Both the position numbers and the translations under genes were made by a program. From Dictyostelium discoideum (lineage: Eukaryota), in assembly GCA_000004695.1 (NCBI GenBank), contig CM000152.2:5664001-5728000 (forward strand): 64,000 nucleotides of DNA. The letters run 5' to 3'. Below are positions 35,822 through 43,024 of this stretch, in pieces (position 1 is the stretch's first letter; each line of letters opens with the position of its first letter). The notes beneath the pieces were generated by a model that did not search any database, was not told where the DNA came from, and saw nothing but the letters and a program-made list of their open reading frames with translations.

Positions 35822-38800
35822 TTAAACGGTTGCTTCAATTGGTTTCTCAGACTTTAAATTTGGCGAGAATTTTAAAACTGAATAAGGAATATTTGAGGTT
35901 AAACTTGGTGCAATACTATTAATTAAACTATTACCATTATTATTGATATTATTATTACTATTATTATTGATATTATTATTTAGACCATTATTATTATTAT
36001 TATTATTATTGATATTATTGATATTATTCATATTATTATTAGGATTATTATTATTAGGATTATTATTATTATTATTATTAATAATTTGTTTTCTTGATTT
36101 ATCTTTAAAGAATAAAACGATAATTAAAATGACAACAGCACAAATTGCAATATAACCAGTGATAGCTAATTGTGAAGAATCGGTTTCATTTGGATAACGA
36201 TCACTACCACGAGTATTTGGTACGGTTAGAGGTGGAATAACTTTATCACGTTGTTCCCATGTGATATTTAAGTATTTCTCTAAATTGGGCCATTGTGGAT
36301 CAGGGAATTGATTTGGATAGATTTGATTACCACAAGTTTGAGCCAACATGACCGATTCAGGTTTACTAACGATCTTGGAAAACTTTTTCATCTCTTTAAT
36401 TGAACCACTATCGGTTGTTCTACTTGGTAGTTCCAATTGTTTTAATGATTTTGAAATTGGTAATAACGGTCTATGTAATGTGCCAATGGTTGGGAAATAA
36501 TTGGTAATTGAAGGACTACCCTCTTTCAATACTGATAAAATATCTTCAATTAACCAAAAACAATCTAACCTATTCTTATCCTTATTTGGTGATTCATCTA
36601 AACAATTTGAATCACCAAATACAACAATATTACCACTTGAATAAATTGAATTATCTTCTTTTTTTTCTTTATTCTTTTTATTATTATTATCACTATTACT
36701 ATTATTATTATTACTATTGCTATTATTACTATCACTATTACTGTTGGTACTACTACTACTACTAGTACTACTACTAGTATTATCAACAATACTATTATCA
36801 GAACTATCTTGAGTTGATTCATCATCATTATTATTAATACTTGATTCAATATTATTATTATTTTTTAAAATTCTTTTTGAAATTATAGTTGAATTTGAAT
36901 CATTAGTTGAATCAGAACTATCAGAACTATGTTCATTTTCTAAAGTTGTTGGTTGAAAGAAACCTAATACAGGTACTTTTGATTGTGAAGTTCTACCTTT
37001 AGTGATGAGACGAGTTTGATCTACTAATGAAGCTTCTAAAATTTTACCACCAGCAGGGAAACCAATGATAGAGGTACCTGATGAAAATGTTGAAACTTTA
37101 TTACCTACAGAGAATTCACCATTGTAAATACTATCACCAAAATAAATTCCAAACACTGATAGGAAATCATTGAGAGCTGGTACATTTGAACCACCAGTAG
37201 CGGGTGACCATAATTGTTGAGTATTATCATCATGAAATTCAATTAATTTCATCACCTCGGTATTATACCAATCTGCGAAAACTATTAAATTCAAACCATG
37301 ATTTCTAACATCCTCTTCAATCTTTTTAATTTCTGATGGTAAAAACTCTTCCTCTGGGTCAATGATCATCAATGTACCATAGTTTGATGGATTGAAACAA
37401 GTCAATGGTGAGCCAATCACCTCTACAAAGTAACCCAATTGTGTTAACTTTCCATAAAGTTTTCTAAAATTGGTATGAATATGATCACCATTCCAATCGA
37501 ATGGTTCATTCTTTGTTTCCAATGAATCACGTGGGAAAAATCCTAATGGATAACGTAGATTATGAAATTGATCCCAAAGTATACGACGTTCTCTTGGTGG
37601 TTTTGGTATAATTTGAACACGTACAGGTAATTGTATTGTATAATAATTTCTAGATAATGTTGATTTAATATTATTATTGTTGATATTATTATTATTATTA
37701 TTATCAATTGCAATTATAACTTCAACAGAACCTTCAGCAACACCATTAAATGATTGTGATTCTTCAGGTACAGTAAAGAAAATACCTAAATGACCAGTCC
37801 ATGGCCAAATGGTTGATTGATAAGAAAAGTCAACTTTTAAATGATGACCATTTCTAGAGGCATTCCAATAGGTGTTTACAATTTCACCACTTACACTAAT
37901 ACCATTTAGAATGGTAGCATTCACAATGATTGGCATTGAGGTATGATAAAGTTTTTGAGTACAATAAGGCCAGAGGTATGGACATGTATCTTTATTAGTT
38001 GGTAAGAAATCCAATTGTGATGGTGATATGGTTATCTTGGGTCTGTAATGATCCAATAGGCTCTTTGCACCCAATACGTTCAATTTGCCATTACCCTGTT
38101 CGAAAATACCTGCATTTTTAATTTTTTCAGCACTTTCAATGAGAACTTGCTTCATTGAGGAGGGGTTGATAATGCTTTTATCCTTCACAGTTGAGATTAG
38201 CAATGCAATGGCACCACTCACCACTGGTGAAGAGACTGAAGTGCCCGATAATGCTTTACAATTATCATCATGACCATTCAATGGCGAGCCGTAAACACCC
38301 GATCCATAGGCCACGATGTCTGGTTTAACCCTACCATATCCATGTGGTAGTTCCCATGTGGTCATACCTCTGCTAGAGAATGATGCCAATTGGTCGTTGT
38401 AATCTATACCACCCACACCAATCACATCGGATTGGTCGGCTGGGTTATTTAAAGTACCATACAACGGACCGTCATTGCCAATGGCCGAAACCACAATGAT
38501 CTTATTTGCAGACACTTCCCACACCTTTTCAACAAATGGTTTATCCATGAAATCAGGTCCACCAATTGAAAGATTCAATACGTCAACTTTGGTTAGAATC
38601 ACATGATTGAAGGCATCAATGAACCAACTTGTGAATGAAACCTTCTCAGAATTGAAAACCCTATAGATATAAATCTCTGCATCTGGTGCAAAACCCATAC
38701 ATTTCTCTGAGGAACTTGCAATTATACCCGTAACAAATGTACCATGACCAATGGTATCAGTATTACTCTTTTTCTTATTTTCAACTTTTTCACGTGCCCA

Positions 38801-39110
38801 ATCGGTTATCTCTACAACATTTGAAAAATGAGGATGATCCTTTGCCAAACCTGTATCAAATACTGCAACTTTTGTACCTCTACCTGTGAATCCTTGATTC
38901 CACAATTTCCTCACATTAAACAAATCCGTAATCTGTATATGATCATTAATCGATTTCAATTTTCTACCAACACTTTGATTATAATCTCTACCATTCATCT
39001 CTAAATCAATCATTTCTTCTGGTATCTCTTGATGAATTCTACCATACATTTTTAAATTATCATTAATTTCATTATCATTTTTATTATTATTATTTTCATC
39101 ATCTTCATTT

Positions 39111-39151
<41 letters not shown>

Positions 39152-39817
39152 ATTATCATCTTCACTACTTGTTTGCCATTTTTTTAACATTGATTCATGA
39201 ATTTTTCTTTCTGGAAATATATGTTTAATATTTGAATCTTGTGATAGAATTTTTAAAATTGGATCTAATGATGATTGTTTATTACTTGTGATTTCTACTA
39301 ATGCAAAATCAGATGGATATTTTGAAGCTGGATTATTTCTTGGTATAATTTTCCAATCAATTAATTGATTTTGATTTTTTATACTTTGTTTTATCTTTTT
39401 TTCATTTCTATTAAGAATTTCATTTAAATAAGATTGATGCTCTTTTTGATCAATATACTTTTTAAACATTATTATATATTCTTTTACTAAATTATTTTTA
39501 TTTTTATTTTTAAATTCATTATCATTTATTAATAATGGTGATACATTTGTTGATGTTTTTATTATTGTTGTTGTTGAACAATTATTATATTCTTTAAAAT
39601 TTACAAAATTATTATTATTATTATTATCATTATTGTTATTATTATTATTATTACTATTATTATTATTATTATAAGCTACTACTACATTTTTACTATTACT
39701 ATTTAAATTATTATTATTATTATTTTTATTATTAAAAATATTTAAACTATCACTATATAAAAAAATTAAAATAAATGTTATGGTAAAAAACCATTTATAG
39801 TTTATTATTGTAATCAT
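35822..39817 (-). CDS. subtilisin-like serine protease, site-1 protease (S1P/MBTPS1)-like, signal peptide plus C-terminal TM
   Basis: Catalytic triad contexts VAVFDTGL (Asp), GHGTFVTGIIAS (His), GTSVSSPVVSGAIALL (Ser); N-terminal hydrophobic signal; C-terminal TM ITGYIAICAVVILIIVLFF; 1331 aa, single exon. Confidence 0.8.
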
Positions 39818-40022: not shown

Positions 40023-40422
40023 TAATTTTTTTTTTTTTTATTTTTATTTAATTTTTTTAATTGCCTTTCCGAGAATCCACATCTTTTTACACAAAAAAAA
40101 AAAAAACAAAAAAATATAAAAAAAAACTAAAAAAAGATAAAAAAGATAAAAAAAACCAAAAAAGAATAAATAAAAATAAAAAAGATATAAATAAGAAATA
40201 ATAAAATTTAATCGTTTCGTTTTTAGAAATCGAGCTGTAAAGTTTTTTTTTTTTTGAAATTTAACAAATCTTATCTTTTTGGAACAATAAAATTTAAAAA
40301 TAAATATCCATTTATTGATTTATTGTTATTTTAAAATTTTATTGTTAATTTTATTGTTTTGTAATTATTGTTATAGTTTTATTATTACTATTTTTCTTTA
40401 TTAAAGAAACTTTTTAAATAGT

Positions 40423-40671
40423 TTAAAGACCAGCTTTATTTAAACTCTCAGCAACATTAAACAATAAACCACTAACTAAACCAGTTTGGACTTTATTTTC
40501 AGTGAATTGGATCATTGAGTTTTTATTATCAATCAAGGTTGATTTGGTTGAGTTAACTTTAGAGATTGATGAAATTGAAGCTAAATTAAAATAAATTAAA
40601 ATTATTAGTATTTTTTTTTATTTTTTATTTTTTTTTTTTTTCCCAATATTTTAATAATTAATATTTACCAA
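40423..40671 (-). CDS. small (56 aa) protein, paralog A of a divergent gene pair
   Basis: join 40659..40671, 40423..40580. MSLF|ASISSISKVNSTKSTLIDNKNSMIQFTENKVQTGLVSGLLFNVAESLNKAGL, with a phase-1 intron after the 13-nt first exon. Confidence 0.5.
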
Positions 40672-41170
40672 AGAGAGACATTTTTTAATTATTTGATTAT
40701 AATTGATTGTTTTGATTTGATGAAATTTTTTTTTATTTTATCTTATTTATACTTTTTTTTTTTTTAATGATAAATTTTTTTTTTTTTTTTTTTTTTTATT
40801 TTTATTGTTATTGTTGATTTTAATTTTTTGTAAAAGAGAATACCCAATAAAAAGAAATATTTTAAAAAATTATAGTATTAAATGTCGTGAATTAATTTAA
40901 ATTAATCTTTGACATTTTAAAATTGTAATTCGTTTTAAAATTTTGTAAAATTGTTTTCAAAAATTAATTAGTTGTAAATCATTTTTTTAAAAAATTATGG
41001 GGTCAAAGAAATAATAATATACTCATTAATTAATTAATTGTTTTTTTTTTTTTTTTTTAACACACAACTACCAAATAATTAGTATTTTCTTCATTTTTTT
41101 CGGTAATATTTTAAAAATTATACCTTAAATCTTCGGCTAATTAAATATTAAAAATAATTTATTTATTATA

Positions 41171-41207
<37 letters not shown>

Positions 41208-41278
41208 GATATATAAATAATCATTTTTTTTTCTTTTTTTCAAAAACATAAATCAAATAAAACTAATCAAAATTTAAA

Positions 41279-41529
41279 ATGTCTCTCTTTGGTAAATATT
41301 TATGGTTTATATATATTTTAATATTATAAAAAACAATTAATCTAATTTTTAATTAATAAATGAAGATTCAATTTCTTCAATCTCCAAAGTTATTTCAACA
41401 CCAAATAAGTCATATTTGAATAATAATAAAAATTCAATGGCCCAATTCACTGAAAATAATGTCCAATCAGGTCTCGTTAGTGGTTTATTATTTAATGTTG
41501 CTGAAAGTTTAAATAAAGCCGGTCTTTAA
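41279..41529 (+). CDS. small (58 aa) protein, paralog B
   Basis: join 41279..41291, 41366..41529. MSLF|DSISSISKVISTPNKSYLNNNKNSMAQFTENNVQSGLVSGLLFNVAESLNKAGL, with the same intron position as paralog A. Confidence 0.5.
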
Positions 41530-42516
41530 AATAAAACCTTTAAAAATGTCAAATCCATTTATCTAATATTACAATTACAATTAATAAAATTACGTCATTA
41601 TTTTTGAAATTTTAAAATATTTAAAAACAGATTTTTTTTTTTAATTTTTTTATTTTTTAAAATTGTGTTAATTTTATATTTATAATTTTATCCCCGATAA
41701 AAATTTTAACCCCTAAATTTATTTTAATATAGGAAATAAATAAAAAAATAAAAACCCAACAATAAAAAAACAAAAAAAAAAAAAAAAATAAAAACAAAAA
41801 AAAGAAATAAAAATATTATAAAACCAGAAATTTAAAATAACTAAAACTTTAAAAATTACAATTAAAATAAAAAAAAAAAAAAACAATAACATAAAACAAT
41901 GTTATTTATTAATTTTAACGAAAGTGATATAAAAAATATTGGTTCAAATTCAACAATTTTATCAAACCATTCAAATTGTAATATATTCCCAAATGATGAA
42001 AATTATTTAAACAATATTAAAAATAATGAAAGAAGTAATATAGATCAAACCATCCTTTGTCTAACTTCAAAATTTCAAAATTTAAATTATCAATAAAAAC
42101 CAATAATTAATAAATTTTTATTACTACATAGGTTTTTTTTTTTTTTTTTTTTTTTTTTCGAAACCCAGACAGTAAAAAATAAAAGATTATTTATTTTTTT
42201 TTATTTTTTGTGTAATAATGTTTAAAATTTATATTAGAATTTTTTTAAAATAAAAAGGAATTAGTTTATTTATGAATTTTTTTTTTTTTTTTTAAGATAA
42301 TAGTTTAAAATATATATAAAATTAATTAAATAATATCCAATTAGAGATTATTTTATTTTGGGTGCATTAAATTGACCTATATGTTGCGATTAAGTTTTTC
42401 AATTATTGGTATTGTCAAAAAACAATAATACATTTTTTCAGTGTTATTTTTTTGGGCCATTTGGTTGACTCTGTTTTTGAACGAAGTTCGGATTTTGTTC
42501 TACCAAGTAAAAATTT

Positions 42517-42587
42517 TGCGTATGCCGGGAATCGAACCCGGTTCAACTGCTTGGAAGGCAGCTATCATACCACTAGACCACATACGC
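42517..42587 (-). tRNA. tRNA-Gly(UCC), copy 1
   Basis: GCGTATGTGGTCTAGTGGTATGATAGCTGCCTTCCAAGCAGTTGAACCGGGTTCGATTCCCGGCATACGCA. Cloverleaf with anticodon loop CTTCCAA, T-arm CCGGGTTCGATTCCCGG, acceptor GCGTATG/CATACGC. Near-identical to metazoan tRNA-Gly-UCC. Confidence 0.9.
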
Positions 42588-42953: not shown

Positions 42954-43024
42954 TGCGTATGCCGGGAATCGAACCCGGTTCAACTGCTTGGAAGGCAGCT
43001 ATCATACCACTAGACCACATACGC
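42954..43024 (-). tRNA. tRNA-Gly(UCC), copy 2 (tandem duplicate)
   Basis: Identical 71-nt sequence within the second unit of the tandem duplication. Confidence 0.9.

Follow-up and report, generated by a model that had tools for sequence, protein, structure and literature searches.

DDB_G0282399 and DDB_G0282401, a head-to-head pair of tiny Dictyostelium discoideum genes, as very probable short-form members of the hssA/2C/7E (sigN) family

In Dictyostelium discoideum, 96 sigN-related genes coding for proteins of less than 120 amino acids (aa) were described by Vicente et al. (2008; PMC2257962). In 89 of the 96, an exon-1 open reading frame (ORF) of 13 nucleotides (nt) is followed by a single intron and a second exon with the remaining ORF, and head-to-head pairs were already described (PMC2257962). 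A 13-bp first exon is likewise given for the hssA/2C/7E family by Kin et al. (2018; PMC6198379). The pair of genes analysed here lies at 40423-41529 of a 64,000-nt stretch of D. discoideum DNA (the window; GenBank assembly GCA_000004695.1, contig CM000152.2, positions 5,664,001 to 5,728,000 of the forward strand) and has the family's organisation, with one short, AT-rich, phase-1 intron in each gene. The pair also shares the N-terminal motif M-(S/T)-(L/I)-(F/L)-x-SISSI, the product size below 120 aa, the restriction to Dictyostelium, the head-to-head arrangement around a common intergenic promoter (for the pair, a proposed one) and the induction during development with a bias to prestalk cells. 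In the family, knockouts of one gene and even of 13 genes had no phenotype, and one gene of the pair behaved alike. The 13-nt exon, the intron and the divergent pairing are published hallmarks of a known family, and all unusual traits of the pair are therefore already known, as is the locus itself: both genes carry annotations, the family was published with its gene structure in 2008, and DDB_G0282399 has been knocked out without phenotype. The locus is very probably the annotated pair DDB_G0282399 (-) / DDB_G0282401 (+), two short members of a family found only in Dictyostelium, hssA/2C/7E (sigN; Pfam PF05710 'Coiled').

The two genes, called A (DDB_G0282401) and B (DDB_G0282399) below, were spliced by script, giving the following models.

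41279-41291, + strand: gene A, exon-1 ORF, 13 nt, ATGTCTCTCTTTG
41292-41365, + strand: gene A, intron, 74 nt, GTAAAT...AAG, phase 1
41366-41529, + strand: gene A, exon 2 including the stop codon, residues 5-58; product 100% identical to DDB_G0282401
40669-40681, - strand: gene B, exon-1 ORF, 13 nt, ATGTCTCTCTTTG, same as gene A
40581-40668, - strand: gene B, intron, 88 nt, GTAAAT...TAG, phase 1
40423-40580, - strand: gene B, exon 2 including the stop codon, residues 5-56; product 100% identical to DDB_G0282399

From the ATG through the splice donor the initial 21 nt are identical in both genes (ATGTCTCTCTTTGGTAAATAT, that is ATGTCTCTCTTTG followed by GTAAATAT), and each therefore has a 13-nt exon-1 ORF and a phase-1 intron, which splits codon 5. 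Spliced translation gave a gene A product of 58 aa, MSLFDSISSISKVISTPNKSYLNNNKNSMAQFTENNVQSGLVSGLLFNVAESLNKAGL, and a gene B product of 56 aa, MSLFASISSISKVNSTKSTLIDNKNSMIQFTENKVQTGLVSGLLFNVAESLNKAGL. The start codons lie head to head at 41279 (+) and 40681 (-), with exactly 597 bp between them (40682-41278). Splicing and translation thus bore out what a first-pass annotation, made from the sequence alone, had proposed: two tiny, divergent, paralogous two-exon genes of 56 and 58 aa, with the same intron placement after a 13-nt first exon and ATGs about 600 bp apart on opposite strands. Its estimate of about 75% protein identity was too low, the measured value being 83% with BLASTP and 86% with MAFFT; the coding sequences (CDS) are 87% identical. 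An inverted duplication with a bidirectional promoter had also been proposed. The common upstream region of about 600 bp stands, whereas the inverted repeat covers the coding parts alone (arms 40419-40550 and 41402-41533, 132 nt, 85%) and the intergenic DNA is non-palindromic.

The exact database matches are named 'hypothetical protein DDB_G0282401' and 'hypothetical protein DDB_G0282399', both from D. discoideum AX4. Both are annotated stand-alone genes, not fragments of a larger gene. The single-guide RNA and two screening primers used on DDB_G0282399 by Wu, Williams and Scaglione (2021; PMC8554618) map exactly, to 40525, 40430 and 40697; the gene had been picked in that study from the family's class of small-protein genes, found with PANTHER. 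PF05710, whose profile is 90 positions long and has a gathering cut-off of 21.4 bits, matches residues 1-39/41 of both products over profile positions 1-39, and gene B exceeds the cut-off with 26.6 bits. The earlier statement that no homolog came to mind is therefore superseded: both genes are annotated, the 13-nt exon 1 is the signature of the roughly 100-gene hssA/2C/7E (sigN) family, and PF05710 matches the N-terminal halves.

Several points weigh against this assignment. Gene A scores 18.8 bits on PF05710, under the cut-off, with just profile positions 1-39 of 90 aligned, and its C-terminal 32 aa have no Pfam match. When sizes and intron lengths were compared with the 96 genes tabulated by Vicente et al. 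(Additional file 1, with old DDB IDs), neither gene could be recognised; that table has no 58-aa entry, and its lone 56-aa chromosome-3 entry is sigN183 (DDB_G0279125). Run against 1.8 billion proteins at E ≤ 0.001, a profile of the short subfamily described below retrieved no canonical member. Comparison with the canonical form used one member, P0013 (D. dimigraforme ACTA71_001693, 105 aa), the single protein retrieved with a bait sequence; it scores 68 bits on PF05710 over profile positions 6-90. With this one canonical member, BLASTP aligned the first 13 residues only, and hhalign (profile to sequence) placed GLVSGLLFNVA opposite GNLVGGVLVGVG with a probability of 15.7%. An RNA-level effect has moreover been reported for the family founder hssA (PMC6198379), and the biochemical role of the pair is pure inference.

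The products also depart from the described family in size and composition. Those of hssA/2C/7E (sigN) genes are 87-99 aa long, against 56-58 aa here, and SigN proteins are rich in Ser, Cys and Gly, whereas this Ser/Gly/Cys-rich body is not present in the pair (0 Cys and 3 Gly in each product). PF05710 positions 40-90 are unmatched, and the C-terminus consists instead of a separate conserved helix, GLVSxLLFxxAxxxxKAGL.

This C-terminus defines a short subfamily, which emerged with profiles only: single-sequence search of a 5.8-billion-protein index returned just the two genes and one D. citrinum orthologue. The profile searches covered 1.84 billion representatives, queried with a profile built from the pair and that orthologue, and the 5.8-billion index, queried with a second profile. 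All significant full-length matches were D. discoideum, D. citrinum or D. firmibasis proteins that share the layout of the pair and are 56-63 aa long; the sole other match in the 1.84-billion search was P0006 (3424 aa), in which six short stretches were matched. The following members were found.

D. discoideum siblings of the pair: DDB_G0285549 (57 aa), DDB_G0282037, DDB_G0282039, DDB_G0279125
D. firmibasis: RB653_006349, RB653_006365, RB653_006248, RB653_004322
D. citrinum: ACTFIV_011054

In D. discoideum the subfamily has at least six members, the pair and sigN183 included. PF05710 was matched by 11 of 11 subfamily sequences at E ≤ 10 (best 9.8e-6). The family N-terminus is kept as MSLFxSISSISKV, and the C-terminal helix replaces the Gly/Ser/Cys-rich body; the invariant or nearly invariant positions are F4, S6, I7, S9-V13, N14, F32, N35, G40-S43, L45, L46, A50, G57 and L58. 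The supplement of Kin et al. (PMC6198379) gives DDB_G0279125 the name sigN183, and the gene agrees with the entry in the table of Vicente et al. (56 aa, chromosome 3, 10-nt exon 1, intron 85). Being sigN183 in both sources, it ties the short subfamily to the published family list.

sigN183, DDB_G0282037, DDB_G0282039 and DDB_G0285549 have the same short architecture and C-terminal motif as the pair, with 44-52% identity to gene A. The expression shape of sigN183 nearly equals that of DDB_G0282399 (peak at 20 h, prestalk-only, stalk-enriched), while its exon-1 ORF has 10 nt (MLY...) in place of 13. Unlike the pair, DDB_G0282037 and DDB_G0282039 have 62-63 aa and a duplicated LVxG motif, and DDB_G0282037 is biased to prespore and cup, unlike DDB_G0282399. 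One copy of this type was found in D. firmibasis. Groups called 'gtaG-dependent short proteins' and the '57-aa family' figure in the literature (PMC8327917), and DDB_G0282399, DDB_G0282401 and DDB_G0285549 are possible members of them.

A cluster of three small family genes was observed at a separate D. firmibasis locus (L005, 4001-5232). One is the sigN183 orthologue, with an exon 1 of 10 nt. Another is a 68-aa MTII... member ending in GLLVSGIVYSVGSLLERMGL, the C-terminal motif of the pair on a canonical-type N-terminus, and the C-terminal module is therefore not exclusive to MSLF proteins. The third, a 55-aa MSLF... member, has an unrelated C-terminus with Cys and Trp. The cluster suggests that C-termini are modular within the hssA/sigN family.

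Transcription of both genes, which the first-pass annotation had left to be checked, is supported by published RNA-seq data. Expression values were taken from the supplement of Kin et al. (PMC6198379), which combines the time course of Parikh 2010 with cell-type values in transcripts per million (TPM). DDB_G0282399 stands at 0 at 0, 4 and 8 h and at 1.2 at 12 h, rises to 284 at 16 h, peaks at 1413 at 20 h and falls to 556 at 24 h (Kin et al. supplement, PMC6198379; Parikh 2010). Its TPM values are 0 in prespore versus 2.9 in prestalk cells, and 0.32 in cup, 0.08 in spore, 9.7 in stalk and 0 in vegetative cells (Kin et al., PMC6198379). Rosengarten et al. (2015) list DDB_G0282401 and DDB_G0282399 in neighbouring rows and the same columns of their Additional file 7; by tab count these columns are UP_Hr18_rapid and UP_Hr20_gradual of the filter-development sheet. 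Both genes stand in the same 18-20 h up-regulated lists and are therefore both transcribed and co-induced at culmination. Induction of sigN is at 10-12 h, against 16-20 h (culmination) for the pair. A CRISPR knockout of DDB_G0282399 carrying a 28-bp frameshifting deletion developed normally, and its spores germinated normally (Wu et al., 2021; PMC8554618).

A syntenic block is common to D. discoideum, D. citrinum (L001) and D. firmibasis (L002) and consists of an MBTPS1/site-1-protease homologue (-), gene B, gene A and a 65-aa ORF. In D. citrinum and D. firmibasis the pairs are again head to head, each with 13-nt first exons. Ratios of non-synonymous to synonymous substitution rates (dN/dS), estimated by the Nei-Gojobori method, were 0.21-0.50 in all six pairwise comparisons between D. 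discoideum and D. citrinum; judged from these alignments, the coding sequence is under purifying selection, which argues for a translated, constrained protein. The pair is not a product of chance, because the same divergent arrangement and exon structure recur at the syntenic position in two more species with these dN/dS values.

The two halves of the coding sequence have different histories. In CDS columns 113-167, 10 of 10 informative sites, synonymous ones included, pair the paralogues by species (D. discoideum and D. citrinum). Upstream of column 92, 7 informative sites back cross-species groupings and none groups the paralogues by species; a 6-nt indel is common to positional orthologues. 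Identity in the 3' half between paralogues within a species was 89%, 93% and 92% in the three species, versus 71-83% across species, and in D. firmibasis the paralogues are 94% identical over the whole CDS. The informative sites delimit the following tract.

41463-41529 (+ strand, gene A) with 40423-40489 (- strand, gene B): tract evolving in concert, limits approximate; the part coding for the C-terminal helix

The simplest reading of these alignments is an old duplication whose inverted copies have repeatedly been homogenised by gene conversion. At codon ~30 (41450-41452 / 40502-40504) one MAQF/VAQF copy and one MIQF copy were seen in each of the three species; in D. citrinum the two sides are exchanged with respect to the other two species. 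A maintained dimorphism or an effect of the conversion boundary may account for this pattern.

The intergenic region was aligned with its D. citrinum counterpart, with which it is collinear (70% identity across 637 columns, in conserved islands), and scanned for motifs by regular expression.

40682-41278, no strand assigned: shared intergenic region, 597 bp, 12% G+C; putative bidirectional promoter with both 5' untranslated regions
40740-40752, - strand: putative TATA-like box of gene B, GTATAAATAAGAT on the - strand, 59-71 nt upstream of the ATG
40830-40862, no strand assigned: most conserved intergenic block, GTAAAAGAGAATACCCAATAAAAAGAAATATTT, 32 of 33 bases identical in D. citrinum
41060-41066, - strand: sole G-box/CA-rich heptamer of the intergenic region, ACACACA (TGTGTGT on the - strand)
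41210-41223, + strand: putative TATA-like box of gene A, TATATAAATAATCA, 56-69 nt upstream of the ATG

Conservation in D. citrinum extends to both 5' leaders, and each gene has one TATAAATA box 56-71 nt upstream of its ATG. The D. citrinum sequence aligned with the gene B box is GTATAAATAACTT, and that aligned with the gene A box is GTATAAATACTCG. By its conservation the block at 40830-40862 is a candidate shared regulatory element. The heptamer at 41060 fits the GBF consensus (T/G)G(T/G)G(T/G)G(T/G) and is a predicted site, with CCACACC aligned in D. citrinum; GBF sites have been described in sigN promoters (PMC2257962). Group 2 sigN genes have palindromic intergenic regions with two G-box pairs, whereas the pair has non-palindromic intergenic DNA and one G-box-like site. 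A palindromic promoter of the Group 2 kind was considered and rejected, the inverted matches within the region being A/T-run noise. Co-expression and conservation suggest that the 597-bp region would drive both genes at culmination as a common promoter, in which each gene would have its own TATA box and the central elements are conserved.

AlphaFold2, run with a 10-sequence alignment, predicted one confident element, a helix at residues ~41-55 (LVSGLLFNVAESLNK, pLDDT 82-86). Outside it pLDDT (predicted local distance difference test) was below 60 and the mean was 62.5, so that the model is a single helix plus disorder. No relatives of solved structure were found for the products. A Kyte-Doolittle hydropathy scan of both showed no signal-peptide-like hydrophobic N-terminal core (mean 0.2-0.45 over the first 20 aa), the sole hydrophobic stretch being C-terminal; SigN1 has a predicted hydrophobic segment at aa 54-76 (PMC2257962). 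A tail anchor or transmembrane C-terminus was rejected, as the best 19-residue Kyte-Doolittle mean was 0.87. Net charge is +1/+2, and the hydrophobic moment (muH) of the C-terminal 18-mer is 0.31, a value matched by 892 of 10000 shuffles (9%). Tryptic peptides of the products are VNSTK, NSMIQFTENK and VQTGLVSGLLFNVAESLNK.

The products would be translated, non-enzymatic and largely disordered, and they probably act in prestalk and stalk cells by self-association or by binding a partner through the C-terminal helix, in possible redundancy with each other and with at least four sibling genes. Action through association of the C-terminal helix, in the stalk lineage at culmination, is our best guess and is held with low confidence. 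The first-pass annotation had taken the C-terminus as amphipathic and a secreted peptide as possible, and extended to this locus the idea is that the pair encodes secreted, amphipathic or antimicrobial-type peptides, exported from prestalk/stalk cells to the slime sheath, the stalk tube or the environment. The confidently predicted helix, the expression in a lineage that builds extracellular matrix, and the vesicular staining from which Vicente et al. proposed secretion or an extracellular-matrix role for SigN (PMC2257962) speak for it; the staining was reported for SigN Group 2, together with antibody-induced disaggregation of mounds (Vicente et al., PMC2257962). The same authors saw no extracellular or plasma-membrane signal (PMC2257962), and the N-termini of the pair are Ser-rich and polar. 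With no N-terminal hydrophobic core, modest amphipathicity, low charge and zero cysteines, the idea is not supported by the sequence, and we regard it as quite improbable.

That the functional product is RNA and not protein, as suggested for hssA, would agree with the frame-shifted hssA construct that still suppressed a culmination defect (Kin et al., PMC6198379), with the very short ORFs and with the lack of phenotype of the 28-bp frameshifting knockout. Against it stand the dN/dS values in six of six comparisons and the preservation of the ORF, its length and the C-terminal motif across three species and among six paralogues of D. discoideum, while intron length varies (74-88 nt); we give it very little credence. 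A role as small aggregation-suppressing chaperones is drawn from SRCP1 (serine-rich chaperone protein 1 of D. discoideum), a small, Ser-rich, Dictyostelium-specific protein of 88 aa that Wu et al. placed in the small-protein class that yielded DDB_G0282399 (2021; PMC8554618). Its functional part is described as C-terminal, the anti-aggregation activity being assigned to a pseudo-amyloid C-terminal domain. In the pair, of 56-58 aa, a conserved hydrophobic C-terminal segment likewise follows a polar, disordered region, and the C-terminal hydrophobic helix would stand in place of the SRCP1 domain. Against this likeness, the C-terminus of the pair is predicted to be helical, not beta, and expression is confined to late development, not constitutive. 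A chaperone role by this analogy is highly unlikely. A further reading takes the six short 56-63-aa proteins (DDB_G0282399, G0282401, G0279125/sigN183, G0282037, G0282039 and G0285549) as a functionally distinct hssA/sigN clade in which the Gly/Cys-rich body was swapped for the conserved C-terminal helix. Recurrent gene conversion would then hold the pair because its products act together in terminal differentiation of stalk cells, for example in a hetero-oligomer, each species having a 'MAQF' and a 'MIQF' copy. We consider this unlikely.

The additions made here are small: a short subfamily with its own C-terminal helix, a signature of concerted evolution in three species, and mis-modelled orthologues. 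Beyond Dictyostelium annotation the locus matters little, and the function of the family is no more testable here than through other members.

Orthologues were mis-modelled or missed in new Dictyostelium assemblies because the 13-nt exon was overlooked. The second D. citrinum copy (L001 9304..9057, -) is absent from the called genes. The second D. firmibasis copy, RB653_006365 (L002 5307..5050, -), is annotated as 30 aa from an internal Met, and its true product has 56 aa. In the canonical D. dimigraforme member P0013 (L003 10001-10727) the annotated N-terminus, MIKKVIFWMRYKK..., lies outside the PF05710 match and looks spurious; its divergent partner begins at L003 9780 (-).

The window also contains the following features around the pair.

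35822-39817, - strand: site-1 protease homologue, 1331-aa ORF; PF23090 (1e-99), PF00082, PF23094, PF23001
41899-42096, + strand: 65-aa single-exon ORF, MLFINFNESDIKNIGSNS..., just 3' of gene A
42517-42587 and 42954-43024, - strand: two tandem tRNA-Gly(UCC) genes, starts 437 bp apart

The site-1 protease homologue, the synteny anchor of the pair, has long Asn-rich inserts and shows 90-96% identity to its counterparts in D. citrinum and D. firmibasis. The 65-aa ORF is a third tiny conserved gene of the same syntenic block, kept in D. citrinum (L001 10580-10759, 72% aa identity, left out of the gene calls) and in D. firmibasis, where it lies at L002 4753-4565 with a 62-aa annotation.

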